A DNA stretch of 64,000 bases, from the NCBI RefSeq assembly GCF_003018255.1, contig NZ_CP027440.1; one strand, given 5' to 3'. Both the position numbers and the translations under genes were made by a program. The stretch comes from Escherichia coli. GTDB lineage: Bacteria; Pseudomonadota; Gammaproteobacteria; Enterobacterales; Enterobacteriaceae. The notes beneath the pieces are model-generated. The model was not told the DNA's origin. It saw only the letters and a list, made by a program, of their open reading frames with translations, and did not search any database. This document shows, piece by piece, positions 13,269-50,303 of this stretch (positions are counted from its first letter, which is position 1; each line of letters opens with the position of its first letter).

Positions 13269-15710
13269 TTAATACAGGTTCCGCCACTGATCATCTTCCT
13301 GCAAACGCTGGTTCCGATAGAAGATACGCAGGCCTGCTCCTGACGGAATACTGCCTCCGCGAAGGAGTAAATCGACCTCTTTCTCGCTGCCATCAAATCC
13401 TCTGGACTTCAGCTCATACACGAGCTGCAGTCGCTGATGGTCTGTAATTCGCTGTTTGTAGTCTTTACGCCGTTTCGGTTTCACCAGGCGTAACCTTGCA
13501 GCCAGTTCCCGGCGCTCTTTTTTGCTCATACTGTGCAGGTAATCGTGCAACTCCTTGTCATCCATGCGGGTAATGTCCGTTCTGGTATCCCCATCAGCTG
13601 ATTTGTCTTTCCCTTGTTGGTTCAAATTTTCAGCAAGGGGACAGTTATTGCCACGAGTCCAAGGGGCGCAAGCGCCCTGGTCGGCTGCCGCCTCCTGAAC
13701 GTCAACGGCCTTACGAACCATTTTCCACTTCACTGCATGAGTGCAGATCTTGCCCTCTGCAATGGGTGACCAGATGCCATAAATACGAATACCGTGATCA
13801 CCATAGGCGGTCGGCTCTTCGTTGATTTCATAAGCGGTTCTGATCAAGTGATATTTGCGGGGAACCAGTACGCCGCCCTGCTTCATAATGTAGGTGGCAA
13901 AACAGCCAGCATCAGCAGCAGCCAGAATGGCATCAAGGCGCGGGTTATCCAGTACCGACGCACCTGCTTTTTTGTCACCCTGTTGCCTTGCCGCCTGACC
14001 AGCCAGCAATCGCAGTTCACGGTAAGCCTGACGCCCCGGAATGCCAAAGAAGCGGAATTGCTGAACACGATGCAGAGACGCCCAGGCATTAACGTATTCA
14101 GCATTATCACGCAGGGATTTACCCGTTTCCTTGCTGATCTCGCCAGCCAGACCACGCCCGTCAATGTTCTTACTGATGTATTTCGCGATGTAGCTTGTTG
14201 GCGTACCTTTGCGCGGGTTTATCAGCTCAGACTTAAAGCGTGGCCCCGTGTTATTACCCAGCTCCTCGCGGTCTTCACGAATGGCAAACTTACGCAGCAA
14301 AGCAGTAATGGCGCGGCGATCTTTTTTGCGCATGAAACACAACAGGTGCCAGTGAACTGTGCCGTCATGATGCGGCTCAGCCACCCGCACGCCATACCAG
14401 CGCAACCCGGTTTTGTGCATAGCCTTACGAAATGCAGCAAACATGCCGACCAGATAATCGCTGCTTTGTCTTACCGTCGCGTTTGTCCAGGTCGGGTTTG
14501 GTCTGCCGTTATTGAGCGTGGAATGGAAACGCGACGGACAGGTGATGGTGTAGAAAACGGCACAGTCACTGCGCATTTCCGCGATAAGCTCCAGACCTTT
14601 AACACAGGCCATCATCTCATTGCGGCGATGCGCCGGGTTGCTGCTGCTGGCCTTTACCACATCTTCCATATCCAGCGTGTCGCCGTTTTCGTTCACCAGT
14701 TCATGAGAACGGAAAAACTCCAGCGACTTACGGCGCTGCTCACGTTTATGCATCACGGCTTCATAGCTGACATAGGGAGATGCTTTTTTGCTGACCAGGC
14801 AGACAGCACGCAACTGCTCTTCCCGCCATTCGCAGCGCATCTTCCATAATTTCCGATACCACCAGTCGGCACACAACATACGCGCCAGCGAACCCGGAAT
14901 GAGTTCATAGGGCACGGGTTTGCGACGCTTTCTTTTCCGACGAAGTTGCTCAAACGCAGGCGGGATAACATCCAGTCGCAGGGTTTCCGCTGCCACCTTT
15001 TCCCATGTCTTGCGGATTTCTTCTGGCTTAACATCATCGGTGGCGTACAAATCACCACAAGCGGCATCAAGGCACATGCTCATATGCGCAGCTACCAGGG
15101 TGGACAGGCGTTTCACCTGATCCTGACTCATTTCAGGCAGGATCAGCAGGCCGTCCAGCCCTTCATGGCTCGCCATAAAGCGAAAAGAAGTGGATAGCTG
15201 ACTGTCGCGTACATGCTCCAGCCGTTCCAGACATGGCTTAATCGTCTCACGCAAATAGCGAGAATAAGCCTTTGGCCTGCCCAGGCTGCTGAAGTATTCA
15301 ATACGTTGCATCAGCGGCTTGCTGATATGGGAAGGCTGGGCGTTAACGTCCGCCAGAATGACCATGTCCGGATTAAAACGCTGCTGCTCATGCGCCAGCT
15401 TTGCCCGGCTAATGAGCTTATCCTGCTCCATTTCGCGTTGGACAGGATCACGGGATTCATTAAAGAAATAACGCTCCCAGACCTGATCACTCAGTGCCTC
15501 GCGGCGCAGTTGTTCCTGCTCGTTATCGGCAGCGTACAGAGTGATCAGGTTTGAAAGCGCAGAAACCGGCGCAACTTCCGCCGGGTCCAGATAAGGGTTA
15601 ATGGCTTTCTTAGGTAAATTCCACGAATAACCCCCGGCAGAATTCTCAATGCTACCGGAAGTTACACTGACAAATGGATCGGCAAGACGGCCTGTGCTGA
15701 TCTCTGTCAC
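13269..15710 (-). CDS. Replication initiation endonuclease (P2/186 gpA-like)
   Basis: 813 aa; Y-x-K catalytic-tyrosine-like region (YIAKYISKN); position as in P2/186; start overlaps the upstream stop as ATGA. Confidence 0.85.
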
Positions 15711-16717
15711 TCACAGACTCCTGCATATACACTGCTGCACACCGCTTTATCATTCATGCCTGCCAGCAGGTCAAACTGCATACCGCCCCGAGTTGTTAAG
15801 GCCCAGTCCCGATAAGTTTCAATGCCATAAGCATCAACAGTTATGACTTCGATCCGTTTTTCATCACGGCGCGGATCATGCGTGGATGGAAAGAACGTTG
15901 AATTGCCACGTCTTGAACATTCCGCAACCAGTCTTTCCCACTCAGCCACTCGGCGGATTTCTTCTGGCCAGCGTTGGAAAATCTCAGCAAGTTCTGACTT
16001 GCGAGCATGAATACATGGCATACAACCGACACGACTGCATCCCTGCATATAAAGGGGGTTAGGCTTAATGCCATGACGTTTGGCAATAGCAAACACATCC
16101 TCATGCAGCCAATTAAGGATCGGACGATAAACATGCAGGCCCAGAGTATTGTCTGCATCGTCCTCCCACTCAGGCAACAATGCACGTTCCGGTGATTCCT
16201 GCCCCCGGACTCCTTGCCAGCTGATTACCTCATCGTATTCATCCAGAGCCGGATCGATTACCTGTGTACGTATTGGTTCATGTTTTAGTTCAAAAGTGCA
16301 GAAACGAGCTTTTGTTGAAGGGAAGCGACCTTTCCACATGCACAAATCAAGAAACGGAACGCCGGTTGGTTTAAGGATTTCCAGTGCCCGGTAAATACGT
16401 TCCTCAGCCTCATCTGTCGACATACCACATTCCTCAACGAGAGAAATGGGCCACTTTTCCGCAATGAATTTACGTTTCCCTTCTATCTGGCGTGTGAAAT
16501 CCGCTTTGACGCGAATAATCTTGCCCAGCTTTGATTCCAGATAATCCAGATATTCTATTGTCTGTGGATGTTCATGACCCGTATCGGCAAATACAGAAAT
16601 ATGCGGAACATCGTTTTCAATGGCTCTTAACCATTGAGCGAGACTATCTTTGCCACCAGAAGTAGTGATGATGTTAATGGTGCTTGAAGCAAAGCAACGC
16701 GGATCGATAGCATTCAT
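15707..16717 (-). CDS. PP-loop ATP pyrophosphatase, PAPS-reductase-like
   Basis: SGGKDS PP-loop motif near the N-terminus; C-terminal Cys clusters ([18 protein letters not shown]); ATGA-coupled to both neighbours. Confidence 0.75.
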
Positions 16718-17562
16718 GCGCGTACCTCAACGGTACGGTCAGAGCCGCTGGCAAAATCGACACCAAACCACCCAGCTGATTTGGTGGCAATGATTTCTGT
16801 TGCAGATTTACTCTCGCCAGCTGACACGCCAATGCTGCGTTTTGACTTGATGTAGTGGTGAGTGAAATTGCGATACAGCGAACGGATCAGGGATGTGTCA
16901 CTGTTAGAAACAATGACCGGATGACCTTCAGATGATCGATGTTCAAGAACGGATGCCAGGTGATACTGGTCATCTTCAGTGAAGCCATCAGTGTGATAGC
17001 CGGAAAACGTACCGTCATAAGGCGGATCGCAATATACCACATCCCCCACCTTCAACATCGCCAGCGTTTCATCAAAGCTGGCGCAGATAAACGTTGCCCG
17101 CTGGGCTTTCTCTGCAAATGCGCGAATTTCTTTTTCAGGGAAATACGGATTTTTATAATTACCGTAGGGAATGTTGAAATACCCGCTCTTGTTATAGCGA
17201 CATAGCCCACGGTAACCATGACGATTGAGATACAGAAAATATACCGCTTTCATGAAATCAGTAATTTCAGTGGAGTAATTAAACTCCTGCCTTATGTTGT
17301 AATAAGCCACCTCTCTGTTTGCTTCCTCAAATAAAGCTCTGGCACGAGATATAAACGCCTCACAATCAGCAGCAACCTTTTTATAGAGGTTGATTAAATC
17401 AGGATTAATATCCGCAACCAGATAGCTGGGGTAATCCGTCTCCATCATCACAGCACAAGAACCCGCGAAAGGTTCAACCAGTCGCGGGCCAGCAGGAAGG
17501 TATTTTTTCAGTTCGGACATAATGGCGGTTTTATTACCCGCCCATTTCAGGATGGTGCTCAT
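16714..17562 (-). CDS. dam: DNA adenine methyltransferase (Dam-like, N6-adenine)
   Basis: DPPY catalytic motif and an N-terminal SAM-binding region (FAGSCAV); start at [11 protein letters not shown] overlaps the upstream stop. Confidence 0.85.
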
Positions 17563-17861
17563 ACAGCACCTCCTGCAATAACATATCCTAAAGCTTCTAA
17601 TGGGGTTAATGAGCGAATTGATAGCATCACCCATTGTTCTGAAACTGCCATGACGTCATTAACCGGAAGCACATGAGAGATAACCGCGGCCCATTCCCTA
17701 CCCGTAAATACGCCATGCTTCCATTCGCAAAGAGAAAGAACATCACCAACTTTATAGCCACGATCGTCTTTACGAAGTTCAGCCGTCTTTTGACCTGCAA
17801 CCACAGCGTTGAAATACTTAGGTGCAATTTTTAATTGATGGATACGCACAGCCCCTGTCAT
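17559..17861 (-). CDS. ASCH/DUF3850-like small protein
   Basis: About 100 aa from [44 protein letters not shown] overlap with the TraR-like gene. Confidence 0.55.
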
Positions 17862-18085
17862 ACAGCACCTCCGTTGTAATGTTTGCCTTTCAGCTCTGCG
17901 ATTTCCTGACAGGTAATGCAAAGCTGCACTCCTGGAATGGCGCGGCGGCGTGCTGGCGGAATTGGCGCTTCACATTCAATGCAAAGCACGCGAGACACGC
18001 CCGGTGTTTTGGCACGGGCAGCACGGATATGGCGCTGGCGTTCTTCTTCAACGCGCTGCTGTACGAGATCCATTGCATCAGCCAT
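17858..18085 (-). CDS. TraR/DksA-family C4 zinc-finger protein
   Basis: 75 aa with CIECEAPIP...CITCQ four-cysteine finger. Confidence 0.75.
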
Positions 18086-18324
18086 TAGTGGATCTCCTGC
18101 GCTTCGTTCTGGATTGCTTCAGCGGTCACACGCAGCAGTTCTGCCGCTTCGACGTGGTTTAGCTGGCGGGATGTGATATGACACGCAAGACTATCAAGGC
18201 GGGCAGCCATTGCTTCAGCCCTTGCCCGGCGTTCTTCCAGACGAGCCTCTGTCAGTAAAATATTAAGCCCTGCGTCATCCGGTCCGGTTTTAGTCGTGAG
18301 GGTTTCAATATTACGCATAATCAA
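18085..18324 (-). CDS. Hypothetical phage early protein
   Basis: 79 aa ORF in the early operon; no recognisable motif. Confidence 0.45.
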   Translation of the reverse strand: MIMRNIETLTTKTGPDDAGLNILLTEARLEERRARAEAMAARLDSLACHITSRQLNHVEAAELLRVTAEAIQNEAQEIH

Positions 18325-18385
18325 TTCTCCTGAATTTAGATAAAGGGATGCCCGGCGGGTTTACGCCATTAATTTCATTAGCTGG

Positions 18386-18727
18386 TTAATTCGGCATGGT
18401 TAGCCGTCTGGGAAATAAGCTCACCACTGCACGAAAATGATTCATTGCTTTAATCAACTCCCGCTTTTCGTCAGTGGTCAGCTCATTAATGCTGATGCTA
18501 TGACGTTCAGCTGGAATTTTTGCCATAAAGAATATGGCAGCCAGTGCCCGTTTATTTTGTTCGCTATTGATATCCCGTGGATCACGCATATCTTTAATAA
18601 ACCGCTCAAGCTCTGACTCAATATTCAGGCCAAAAACTTTCGCCCTTAACTCCGCAATGTGATTAAGTCCATTCAGGCGTTCACCGGGGCTTAATGGAAC
18701 AGTCGCCGCAGCGCCATTAATTGCCAT
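18386..18727 (-). CDS. Hypothetical phage early protein
   Basis: 113 aa ORF co-directional with the early operon. Confidence 0.45.
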   Translation of the reverse strand: MAINGAAATVPLSPGERLNGLNHIAELRAKVFGLNIESELERFIKDMRDPRDINSEQNKRALAAIFFMAKIPAERHSISINELTTDEKRELIKAMNHFRAVVSLFPRRLTMPN

Positions 18728-18749
18728 AATTCATATCCCCAAAACGCAA

Positions 18750-18974
18750 CTATCGTTCTTTGTTCTTACGGTAACGTTCAAGAGGAGATACATTTTTTCG
18801 TATCGTCTCTTTAACCTGCTCTCCCCGTAAAAACGTCCCATCCTTTAGCGTGAAAAAGTAACTGCCATCGCCCGACAACGACGGATAACAACAGAGCAAA
18901 TCATCTTCAGGTACTGAATAACTCTCCCCTCTGTAACGAAACTGATAAACCACTTCACTTTCCGCTGCATACAT
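18750..18974 (-). CDS. Hypothetical small phage protein
   Basis: 74 aa ORF; overlaps the next ORF in another frame, so only one may be real. Confidence 0.3.
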   Translation of the reverse strand: MYAAESEVVYQFRYRGESYSVPEDDLLCCYPSLSGDGSYFFTLKDGTFLRGEQVKETIRKNVSPLERYRKNKER

Positions 18975-19141
18975 TTTGACTTTCTCCGTTTCCCCGTGGT
19001 CAATTCAGACAGCAATTCATCTTGTGAACGGCACGGATGCCAGCGTTTACCATCCTTACCCATGATCCAGCCGTGACCGTAGTGCATTGCCGGGCTTTGT
19101 TTTACCAGCAGCGATGCAAATGATGGTTCTTTCGTCAGCAT
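18845..19141 (-). CDS. Hypothetical small phage protein in the fil/dhr position
   Basis: Start MLTKEPS lies just after the CII stop; basic C-terminus. Confidence 0.3.
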   Translation of the reverse strand: MLTKEPSFASLLVKQSPAMHYGHGWIMGKDGKRWHPCRSQDELLSELTTGKRRKSKCMQRKVKWFISFVTEGRVIQYLKMICSVVIRRCRAMAVTFSR

Positions 19142-19148
19142 AAGCACC

Positions 19149-19658
19149 TCACAGCAAACCGAATGAAGCACCGAGGCCAGTCACGGTATCAACTGCACTC
19201 GCCATCGCAGGATTAGCCTGTAAACGGGCCTGCAATGAAACAGCCGCCAGCGCCATCAGTCGTGTTACAGAGTTAATGCTGCTGATAGCATCACGACGAC
19301 CTGCACTGGTTTTTACATCGCCAGATACCGCACCTGCCGCGACACGTCCTATCTCTGCAGTTGCACTCATGACGTAATGCGGCAGTTTCTCTTTTGCTAC
19401 CTCATTAATCGGTACACATGGCAGGCAGTGAATCTGTGCCAGAAAACCATCTACCAGCGTTGAATCTTCAGTCAGATCGGTAAGCAACCAAATTTCTGGT
19501 GCGGTTAATAAATGAGGTTGAGCTGGGTTCAGTTTGTTCCGCAGAATCTGCACATTCATGCCTGCACGTTCTGCCAGTTGCACCAGATTGTGGCGCAGTG
19601 CGAATGCACGACAGGCTTCATCAAAATGTGGATGTTTGGAAACTTGGTAATCAAACAT
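19149..19658 (-). CDS. CII-like transcriptional activator (phage 186 type)
   Basis: [19 protein letters not shown]... resembles the 186 CII N-terminus as I recall it; about 169 aa from the internal Met. Confidence 0.8.
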
Positions 19659-19722
19659 GGTTTTCAACTCCGAACTTATCGCAAAATCGAACTCAGCGTC
19701 TTATTGCGAAAATAGACGTCTA

Positions 19723-19926
19723 TTAAGCAGACAAAGCATCAACAGTCAGAGCAGCCAGGTTAATCATTACCTTTTCACGTTTTTTGTCTTTACGAAGACG
19801 ATGACGAGGTAGTCGGCCATCAGCCAACATGTCGTTAATCGTATCAATAGAAAGGCCAGTCAGTTCGCTATAACGTTCGATTGTGACATGTGGTGTATTC
19901 AGAGTAATTGAAATGTTAGGTGTCAT
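19723..19926 (-). CDS. Apl/Cox-like excisionase and repressor
   Basis: 67 aa HTH protein, first gene of the lytic operon, divergent from CI. Confidence 0.7.
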
Positions 19927-31154: not shown

Positions 31155-31244
31155 TGGCGGAGAGAGGGGGATTTGAACCCCCGGTAGAGTTGCCCCTACT
31201 CCGGTTTTCGAGACCGGTCCGTTCAGCCGCTCCGGCATCTCTCC
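31155..31244 (-). tRNA. serU: tRNA-Ser (anticodon CGA)
   Basis: Minus strand reads GGAGAGATGCCGGAGCGGCTGAACGGACCGGTCTCGAAAACCGG...CTCTCCGCCA with a long variable arm. Confidence 0.9.
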
Positions 31245-32235: not shown

Positions 32236-32311
32236 TCCTCTGTAGTTCAGTCGGTAGAACGGCGGACTGTTAATCCGTATGTCACTGGTTCGAGTCCAGT
32301 CAGAGGAGCCA
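32236..32311 (+). tRNA. asnT: tRNA-Asn (GUU)
   Basis: TCCTCTGTAGTTCAGTCGGTAGAACGGCGGACTGTTAATCCG...AGGAGCCA. Confidence 0.95.
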
Positions 32312-48771: not shown

Positions 48772-48929
48772 ACCTTAAGTGCAGCCCTGGTGCCTGTCGG
48801 CACTGCGATGAAAGAACTAAATGATGCCGCCATACCCTGATCCTTTCAGGGTGGTAGGGGTATAAAGACGCGCCTGTACTCTACTGGACGCTTCCGGGCA
48901 ACCCACTTCCCACCGAAGTTGTTGGTAAT

Positions 48930-49075
48930 GACTGACTGGCTGGTCTTCTGGCTTAGCGTCATCCTCTCCCGACCTTCCCAATCTCGCGATCAGTGGCATT
49001 TTCGGGTTTGTCAGCATTACAGCAGCGGGGGCTGCGAGGGATTTTCACCCTCTTCCCAGGCACAAATGTGCCACA
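48930..49075 (-). promoter_or_regulatory. Cobalamin (adenosylcobalamin) riboswitch aptamer, cbi-leader type
   Basis: Minus strand reads GGGAAGAGGGTGAAAATCCCTCGCAGCCCCCGCTGCTGTAA...GCCACTGATCGCGAGATTGGGAAGG...AGCCAGAAGACCAGCC, matching conserved riboswitch core and B12-box consensus. Confidence 0.8.
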
Positions 49076-49186
49076 CCTGTCAGCGTATGTTATGAGCTGA
49101 TTTCACTTTTCCCATAACAGGTAAATAACGTTAATTATTCATTGCAGAGTTTATTTAAACCGTCCTCTTTTTTTGGGGCATTTACT

Positions 49187-50101: not shown

Positions 50102-50303
50102 GATAAAACCTCCCAGTTAATTTATTGTTATAGCAAAACAATTGTTTTACATTTAATCTTCACATCATCCTTGATGATTTACTGACGAGAAGCACAAAGG
50201 ACAATAACAAAAGCCTCCGTGAAGCGGGAGACTTTTTAATAAGTTCGGAAAGCAGATCACAAACAGTAAAAAAATAAACGTTTATAACTGCCAGATTATT
50301 TCG

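Follow-up and report, generated by a model that had tools for sequence, protein, structure and literature searches.

An orf84-type PP-loop protein between Dam and gene A of a retron-Ec67 prophage in Escherichia coli, and the linkage of its family to DNA methyltransferases

In the early lytic operon of phage 186, the gene directly upstream of the replication gene A is orf84, which the RefSeq annotation of the phage gives as of unknown function and 'not essential', adding that translation through the end of orf84 'appears necessary' for translation of A. Phage genes whose products resemble reductases of 3'-phosphoadenosine 5'-phosphosulfate (PAPS) are among those most often reported as sulfur auxiliary metabolic genes. 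Recent work treats the PAPS reductases of prophages as sulfur-metabolism genes, and a 2026 preprint calls their presence 'puzzling'. PAPS reductases have also been described in Aca-regulated anti-defence operons, with evasion of restriction-modification or phosphorothioate systems as the proposed function (2026 preprint). The podophage protein p0018 of Vibrio crassostreae (479 aa) has a PAPS domain at its N-terminus and a Dam domain at its C-terminus, and moving p0018 and p0019 into a sister phage led to infection of a Dnd-defended host (Piel et al., bioRxiv 10.1101/2021.05.05.442762). Here we describe an orf84-type gene in a 64,000-nucleotide stretch of E. coli DNA (contig NZ_CP027440.1 of assembly GCF_003018255.1; the whole stretch is called the window below). 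The gene lies in a 186-related prophage with retron Ec67, and its product, a predicted PP-loop ATPase, is encoded between a Dam-family DNA methyltransferase and gene A (Table 1). We found that, across unrelated phages, the family of this protein is strongly linked to DNA METHYLTRANSFERASES.

The PP-loop protein is the orthologue of the orf84 product of phage 186 and a member of the orf84 family. The 186 protein (CP84, NP_052288) is 81.4% identical to it over residues 4-336, and searches of PHROGs gave phrog_424 (1.4e-82 over residues 2-335) and phrog_15238 (3.3e-86). As in 186, the gene belongs to the early lytic operon and is directly upstream of A, which it overlaps by four bases at its stop codon, and the two proteins have a PHROG in common. 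The loci differ upstream, where 186 has a DnaQ-like exonuclease gene and DUF5405 whereas the prophage has an ASCH-like gene and Dam, and at the junction with A, which is ATGA in 186 and GTGA here. The family is large, with 343 clusters at 50% identity at E ≤ 1e-30 and 2293 at E ≤ 1e-3. An earlier note on this DNA had described the PP-loop gene as a less characterised partner of Dam, which agrees with what we found: it is a known open reading frame (ORF) to which the 186 annotation gives a role in cis and no enzymatic activity.

The neighbourhoods of the family were compared after 76 more distant viral loci had been added and the PP-loop proteins clustered at 70% identity, which gave 44 lineages. 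Methyltransferases were detected with iterated hidden Markov models (HMMs); the search with the N-terminal domain of the fusion protein P0257 (described below) was run with PP-loop ORFs excluded. For gene densities, lineages were weighted equally and flanks were corrected for incomplete ends. A methyltransferase gene was present within 300 bp of the PP-loop gene in 18 of the 44 lineages and within 2 kb in 26, and two more lineages had one at 2-6 kb. The density of methyltransferase genes was 0.44 genes/kb within 500 bp, compared to 0.001-0.04 genes/kb in the bins from 0.5 to 6 kb. Overall, methyltransferase genes of several classes were 10-30 times as dense within 500 bp of the PP-loop gene as farther away. 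Ascertainment bias, which could have entered through seeds drawn from neighbouring genes, was rejected as the source of the enrichment: a seed-independent count of ORFs of at least 150 aa with the motif [DNS]PP[YFW] decayed in the same way (8.3 weighted within 500 bp, at most 1.1 in any other bin).

At least five families are represented among the partner methyltransferases (Dam/D12, C5 including phrog_363 and others, N4/N6, phrog_954 and phrog_111). In phiE125, the gene for a site-specific DNA methyltransferase resembling M.Cfr9I (gp56) overlaps that for gp57, annotated as PAPS-reductase-like, by four bases, and a ParB-like gene is next. Agrobacterium phage Rivra has a methyltransferase gene on each side of the PP-loop gene, with four-base overlaps at both junctions. 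The methyltransferase is one to three genes away in Shewanella SFCi1, Stenotrophomonas S1, Serratia Parlo, Acidovorax Alfacinha3, a Porphyromonas phage and Bacteroides BS-TP4. Genes for ParB-N-like proteins were the second recurrent neighbour within 500 bp (weighted 4.0, seven lineages). ASCH-like genes were a weak third (weighted 2.1 of the 44 lineages within the same distance), and this association was set aside. Two other arrangements were observed among these loci. In one P2-like contig (L061, 4473-8024) the PP-loop gene lies between Dam, upstream across a 574-nt gap, and a C5-type methyltransferase gene that overlaps it by four bases downstream and is followed by A. In three lineages a cupin gene, classed by PHROGs as 'cysteine dioxygenase' (phrog_4786, 1.8e-49), starts at the PP-loop stop codon (L134, 6948-7559), and it may be a further sulfur-related partner.

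In some relatives the two activities are joined in one polypeptide. P0257 (560 aa) has an N-terminal methyltransferase domain (phrog_799, 3e-50; motifs DPGCGKG and NPPF) followed by a full PP-loop domain. This architecture is common to at least 17 clusters (555-563 aa, 48-100% identity), including a protein of Vibrio sp. HA2012, and is therefore a stable fusion and not an artefact of gene calling. Methanoculleus virus Blf4 encodes a fusion of ParB_N and PAPS_reduct (L177, 1242-2486), deposited as 'DNA modification methylase', and the record of Sulfolobus monocaudavirus SMV2 annotates a PUA-PAPS reductase-like fusion (KP238129.1, 35713-36150). At the locus in the window, PAPS_reduct and the N6-adenine methyltransferase are encoded separately. 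It is like p0018 in combining these two domains in a phage, and counter-defence against Dnd has been proposed for p0018. It is unlike p0018 in that there are two overlapping genes, with Dam first, and p0018 is one polypeptide with a PAPS domain of ~170 aa in front. The phage from which p0018 comes, 44E38.1, was not among the matches of two tblastn searches of the phage collection.

We compared the protein to the known families that share its fold. Pfam PAPS_reduct matches residues 16-237 (2e-33), and sequence matches to solved structures (~1e-6) were best to reductases of PAPS and adenosine 5'-phosphosulfate (APS). An AlphaFold2 model had a pLDDT of 93, with lower values (~70) in the C-terminal tail, and the best Foldseek matches of this model in the PDB were 6vpu, 2oq2, 1sur and 2goy (E ~1e-7, TM(target) ~0.6, 18-20% identity). 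The ten cysteines are at residues 8, 97, 126, 140, 227, 232, 235, 267, 327 and 335. Conservation was assessed in an alignment of 118 representatives of 50%-identity clusters, and the motifs highlighted in Table 1 include those that the earlier note had pointed out, SGGKDS (residues 20-25) and C-terminal cysteine clusters, all of which are present as described. Further conserved positions are D45-T-G-x-E49, G169-x-R-x-x-E-S-x-x-R178, N220-P-L-Y, R229-V-G-C232-x-P-C235, K240, W260-E261, W305 and C327...G333-x-C335-E336. By our reading, the FCTFELK segment may line up with CCxxRKVEPL of the APS reductases. A canonical SGGxDS loop and conserved cluster-type cysteines, as in the class of ATP pyrophosphatases that includes DndC and SspD, are thus present across the 118 representatives, and the corresponding activity and cluster are predicted. 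Taken together, an intact ATP-pyrophosphatase loop, three cysteines positioned like the iron-sulfur cluster ligands of DndC and the APS reductases, and one more cysteine on a mobile tail would be the hallmarks of an adenylating, sulfur-handling enzyme.

The protein is not a CysH orthologue. All four curated models of sulfonucleotide reductases scored far below their cut-offs (NF002537, 63.8 against 154 bits; TIGR00434, 37.4 against 165.1; TIGR02055, 48.3 against 235.3; TIGR02057, 36.9 against 254.2), so the HMM search that the earlier note had set as a check did not return an ordinary enzyme of sulfate assimilation. BLASTP against E. coli CysH aligned two short blocks only (27-34% identity). 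The C-terminal catalytic motif of CysH is ECGLH, and the PP-loop of CysH is degenerate; SGGKDS is of the canonical ATP-pyrophosphatase type. ECGLH is absent from the C-terminus of the PP-loop protein, and the family consensus there is CxSxYGLCE. The likeness to CysH consists of the overall fold, motifs resembling DTG and GxRxxQS, and a CxxC with a tail cysteine as in APS reductases. The differences are the canonical loop, an additional length of ~90 residues, a conserved insertion of ~70 residues between CxxC and the tail cysteine, and the location in a phage operon. No sulfate-assimilation genes (cysDN, cysIJ) were found around the gene, which lies between Dam and A, and across the 44 lineages the neighbours were never cys genes; the recurrent ones encode methyltransferases, ParB-like and ASCH-like proteins and replication proteins.

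Membership in DndC was likewise rejected (TIGR03183, 17.2 bits against a cut-off of 290.4; PADLOC DndC models, at most 24 bits). The best defence-system profiles were SspD (82 bits), BrxP (43 bits) and DndC (24 bits). The SspD match (PADLOC PDLC02782, 81.6 bits, E 1.8e-23) is partial, pairing residues 126-264 with positions 71-202 of a profile of 277. The protein resembles DndC, SspD and BrxP in its PAPS_reduct fold, canonical PP-loop and cluster-type cysteines, and differs from them in a conserved C-terminal extension of its own (residues 240-336) and in its surroundings, where partner genes of the Dnd, Ssp and BREX systems are missing. There were no dndA/D/E genes in the operon of the window or in 80 related loci, and no sspA/B/C genes near the PP-loop gene in the window. 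The NinC family of lambda is another phage family with the PAPS_reduct fold, found in early or nin regions and with an undescribed function. NinC is a separate subfamily (~250-290 aa), reached only through an intermediate Vibrio phage protein. NinC and its relatives occur in 541 phage records, including Stx phages, chi-like phages and many Vibrio phages (for example LC730321.1, lambda, 41184-41912, and L176, 1549-2298).

The adenylation loop, the cysteines of iron-sulfur type, the failure of the CysH models and the links and fusions to methyltransferases and ParB domains argue that the orf84 family handles nucleic acid rather than sulfate. The drop in methyltransferase density of more than 10-fold beyond 0.5 kb, the variety of methyltransferases, the fusions and the ParB links favour a shared substrate, DNA, and a shared purpose, protection from host restriction. 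From these patterns we infer substrate, sulfur chemistry and role, and consider the chance about even that the PP-loop protein is a nucleic-acid-directed counter-defence enzyme of the DndC/SspD type. Such an enzyme would adenylate a nucleic-acid substrate with ATP, would pass sulfur on through the cluster or the tail cysteine, and would act as a DndC/SspD-like enzyme that modifies DNA or mimics the modification. As the protein is synthesised immediately ahead of A, its substrate would be phage DNA in the course of replication. Its placement beside methyltransferases, or its fusion to them, would serve phages as an epigenetic counter-defence to restriction that depends on modification or is based on phosphorothioates. 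The narrower proposal, that the specific product of the enzyme is a sulfur mark on DNA, is a doubtful one.

Several observations weigh against a counter-defence enzyme that works with Dam. First, the two genes assort independently in P2-like phages. Among 5426 complete E. coli genomes, the Dam cassette was in 1239, the PP-loop gene in 37 and both in 23. In those 23 the PP-loop gene is at least 95% identical to that of the window and has Dam adjacent; the other 14 are ~73% identical, with A adjacent. Thus 62% of the E. coli PP-loop genes adjoin the phage Dam, a fraction that may not exceed the base rate because Dam is so common in that slot. Dam is found alone in ~1200 E. coli genomes and in 42 P2-like phages of Klebsiella, and the PP-loop gene is found without Dam in 186 and in ~32 of 80 related loci. 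Second, the partner methyltransferases differ in chemistry (N6-methyladenine, N4-methylcytosine and 5-methylcytosine), and this diversity speaks against a single hypermodification that all of them would have in common on the methylated base. A methyltransferase that serves as a DNA-recognition partner would fit the diversity better, as would two parallel layers of epigenetic camouflage. Third, the close linkage could come from accessory genes piling up in hot spots, and partners like DndD/DndE or SspB/SspC are absent from the locus. Fourth, p0018 was swapped jointly with p0019, so that the phenotype belongs to both genes (bioRxiv 10.1101/2021.05.05.442762), and p0018 is a candidate relative of the orf84 subfamily. 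Finally, no biochemical study of the orf84 family was found in the literature, in which searches on 186 orf84 and on IbrA/IbrB yielded nothing of use, and 186 orf84 is annotated as non-essential.

The relation between Dam and the PP-loop gene is therefore best described in terms of cassettes. The 42 Klebsiella phages have a Dam gene that is 95-97% identical, is directly before A with a four-base overlap, and has no PP-loop gene with it. Phage 186 has orf84 without Dam, with the exonuclease gene and DUF5405 instead. In 80 related viral contigs the gene upstream of the PP-loop gene was Dam in ~30, TraR in ~16 and DUF5405 in ~16, with the remainder in other contexts, and PP-loop genes at 92-93% identity occur with and without Dam (L024 and L025). 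Obligate pairing was rejected, since each gene occurs alone in E. coli, in Klebsiella phages or in 186. Dam and the PP-loop gene are two independent accessory cassettes, in a combination that is facultative and rare, and both were already known.

The overlaps between the genes do not change this picture. The earlier note had read three consecutive ATGA overlaps as linking the ASCH-like gene, Dam, the PP-loop gene and A, and had described Dam and the PP-loop protein as translationally coupled. The number of ATGA overlaps is correct, and the series is shifted by one gene upstream, beginning at the TraR/ASCH junction; the PP-loop/A junction is GTGA (Table 1). A four-base overlap is present at every junction of this operon and of phage 186, whatever the gene content, and the Klebsiella phages have it as well, so ATGA overlaps were rejected as evidence of a partnership between Dam and the PP-loop protein. 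They are a sign of operon compaction and translational coupling, not of a specific partnership. The broader suggestion of the earlier note, that the pair modifies phage DNA or counters host restriction, has on its side the failure of CysH models, the methyltransferase linkage, the fusions and the anti-Dnd precedent of p0018. The independence of the cassettes and the generic overlaps stand on the other side, and we regard the suggestion as partly supported and its direction as reasonable.

Dam itself is an orthodox member of its family. It scored 319.7 bits against TIGR00571 (cut-off 114.85), and residues 4-263 align with the E. coli Dam structures 2g1p and 4gol (249 bits). The equivalog model for chromosomal Dam, NF008152, was not reached (285.4 bits against a cut-off of 441). 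We take the protein to be a phage-borne N6-adenine methyltransferase, predicted to be of the GATC type, and a paralogue of the host Dam rather than the host gene. Its presence in this element was anticipated by the earlier note, which had attributed a Dam methylase to the Ec67 retron element. The reverse transcriptase encoded nearby matches the Retron Ec67 protein over all 586 residues, which identifies the element as a retron-Ec67, 186-related prophage. A Dam ORF in the 34-kb Ec67 element is reported by Hsu et al. 1990, as cited in PMC7826664, and also by Dodd & Egan 1996, as cited in PMC6868368.

The alternative that survives best is that Dam and the PP-loop gene are unrelated accessory genes in a shared hot spot, with Dam methylating GATC and the PP-loop enzyme acting off DNA, for example in thiolation or another modification of tRNA or other RNA, or on a small molecule. 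TtuA and TtcA are PP-loop iron-sulfur enzymes that modify tRNA or other RNA, and TtuA was among the structural matches of our model. The independent assortment of the genes and the generic overlaps speak for this explanation. Neighbours of PUA/ASCH type, which are RNA-binding folds, recur, one such domain is annotated as fused in the Sulfolobus virus, and NCBIfam families of 'hypothetical protein' match at 47-52 bits, about as well as CysH. Against it are the involvement of several families of DNA methyltransferase whose density falls more than 10-fold past 500 bp, even though the DNA farther out is accessory-rich too, the stable methyltransferase-PP-loop fusions, the ParB-N neighbours and the ParB_N-PAPS fusion, and the anti-Dnd phenotype associated with the Vibrio phage fusion. 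ParB N-terminal domains act on DNA. We regard the explanation as a serious possibility, although not a likely one.

A second alternative keeps counter-defence and dispenses with modification of phage DNA. A look-alike of DndC or SspD would poison or hijack the phosphorothioation machinery of the host (IscS/DndA, DndD/E, SspB/C), or would drain sulfur, and so blunt phosphorothioate-dependent restriction. The profile matches to SspD, BrxP and DndC could be read in this way, as could the lack of DNA-targeting partners of its own other than methyltransferases and the tie between the PAPS-Dam fusion of the Vibrio phage and anti-Dnd activity. However, strict conservation of all catalytic motifs in hundreds of clusters at 50% identity is unexpected for a decoy, and the orf84-type family is probably common in hosts in which Dnd and Ssp are rare. 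We therefore consider a look-alike improbable.

The role of the PP-loop gene in the translation of A is secure, and it raises a third alternative. The stop codon of orf84 and the start codon of A overlap, and ribosomes that have completed the former gene would re-initiate on the latter. This overlap was kept in 78 of 83 related P2/186-like loci (40 GTGA and 38 ATGA), which is more than chance. The coupling that is conserved is between A and whichever gene precedes it last: in relatives without the PP-loop gene, others such as Dam precede A and overlap it by four bases in the same way, so coupling needs no particular ORF. It seems very improbable that P2/186 phages retain the ORF chiefly as a leader whose translation brings ribosomes to A, with its enzyme activity irrelevant. 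The conserved overlap and the 186 annotation, in which orf84 is dispensable apart from its translation, are in favour of this possibility. Against it, other genes can take the place of orf84, and the same invariant residues are present in family members from many phages in which the gene is not followed by A.

Two further observations concern this junction. The AGGAG Shine-Dalgarno sequence of A is embedded in the coding sequence of the PP-loop gene, where this specifies the conserved C-terminal A-G-V-C-E (15710-15739, minus strand), so that constraints on the protein and on translation initiation fall on one stretch. In strain EC416 (L002, 5563-7944), PGAP places the start of the replication endonuclease 57 nt past the stop codon of the PP-loop gene. 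The GTG or ATG start that overlaps this stop codon, found in the 78 loci and used in the 186 record, suggests that the PGAP start is too short.

The weakest alternative, a true auxiliary metabolic PAPS/APS reductase that boosts sulfite and cysteine during infection, is the usual virome annotation and draws on the Pfam domain, the best structural matches, the APS-reductase-like CxxC and tail cysteine, and the listing of the family under auxiliary metabolic genes in PHROGs, but is hardly credible given the four models far below cut-off, the two short blocks aligned to E. coli CysH, the missing ECGLH, the canonical SGGKDS in place of a degenerate loop, the conserved insertion, and neighbours that are methyltransferase and ParB-like genes and never cys genes.

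If the orf84 family does act on nucleic acid, many virome annotations need to be re-read, and there is a new DNA-marking or anti-phosphorothioate-restriction activity to identify. A bolder proposal, and a rather unlikely one in our estimation, is that the PP-loop enzyme and an adjacent or fused methyltransferase make up a widespread two-component system for marking phage DNA. Sequence recognition or base flipping would fall to the methyltransferase module, and the PP-loop enzyme would install a new ATP-dependent sulfur mark, which would be a thiolated base or else a phosphorothioate whose synthesis needs no DndD/E. If this were true, most 'cysH auxiliary metabolic genes' of the orf84 family in viromes would be genes for epigenetic counter-defence. 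Phage 186 and the Ec67 prophage, both in E. coli, offer a genetically tractable setting for an enzyme of this type.

Table 1. Genes, motifs and junctions of the early operon region and the retron reverse transcriptase in the window
Feature	Position	Strand	Evidence or remark
Reverse transcriptase, 586 aa	10464-12221	-	PDB 'Retron Ec67 protein' (9i2f, 9lm3), 1322 bits, full length
Gene A, replication endonuclease	13269-15710	-	Homologous to 186 A; GTG start
orf84-type PP-loop/PAPS_reduct-fold protein, 336 aa	15707-16717	-	Pfam, PHROGs and 186 orf84 matches
Dam-family N6-adenine DNA methyltransferase, 282 aa	16714-17562	-	TIGR00571
DUF3850/ASCH-like small protein, 100 aa	17559-17861	-	Pfam DUF3850 1.4e-23; ASCH 2.3e-5; phrog_986 2e-39
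TraR/DksA C4 zinc-finger protein, 75 aa	17858-18085	-	TIGR02419, 65.8 bits against cut-off 59.7; phrog_54
PP-loop protein: motif SGGKDS, residues 20-25	16643-16660	-	Each residue 88-95% conserved, 118 representatives
PP-loop protein: FCTFELK, C140 and K145	16283-16303	-	Both 100% conserved, 118 representatives
PP-loop protein: GCMPC, C232-x-x-C235, cluster-type CxxC	16013-16027	-	C232 100%, C235 97% of 118 representatives
PP-loop protein: C-terminal tail (10 residues), C327 and C335	15710-15739	-	C335 97%, E336 90%, G333 92%, C327 79%
Dam: DPPY, residues 179-182	17017-17028	-	Sequence
Dam: FAGSC	17455-17469	-	Sequence
TraR/ASCH junction	17858-17861	-	ATGA overlap
ASCH/Dam junction	17559-17562	-	ATGA; ASCH-like stop and Dam start
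Dam/PP-loop junction	16714-16717	-	ATGA; Dam stop and PP-loop start
PP-loop/A junction	15707-15710	-	GTGA, preceded by AGGAG Shine-Dalgarno; PP-loop stop and A GTG start

The interval from 15707 to 17562 holds exactly two genes, Dam and the PP-loop gene, both on the minus strand. They occupy a variable slot of the early lytic operon that has the TraR-like gene as its conserved left border and ends at the replication initiator A. A scan of positions 15300-19800 found no promoter-like site on the minus strand and no terminator-like sites above the shuffled expectation, which is consistent with a single operon. An Rfam scan of the window gave no match in the Dam/PP-loop region. A hairpin with a 10-bp stem and a T-rich tail is present inside the 3' end of the Dam coding sequence (16761-16786, minus strand), ~45 nt ahead of the start of the PP-loop gene. 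Internal terminators of similar appearance occur in the early operon of 186, where they are read through only during active translation or antitermination.

Other features of the window were noted. The reverse transcriptase gene of the retron adjoins the portal gene, at a defence hot spot of P2-type phages, and a 99.7%-related E. coli prophage has a P-loop NTPase gene at the same position instead. A 351-aa ORF that runs antisense within gene A (13794-14849, plus strand) has most likely arisen by chance in coding DNA that is GC-rich. Beyond the prophage, the window has five tRNA genes (at 31158, and with identical scores at 32236, 40398, 42219 and 44628), a cobalamin riboswitch (48921-49095, 107 bits) and the small RNA STnc230 (50162-50245).

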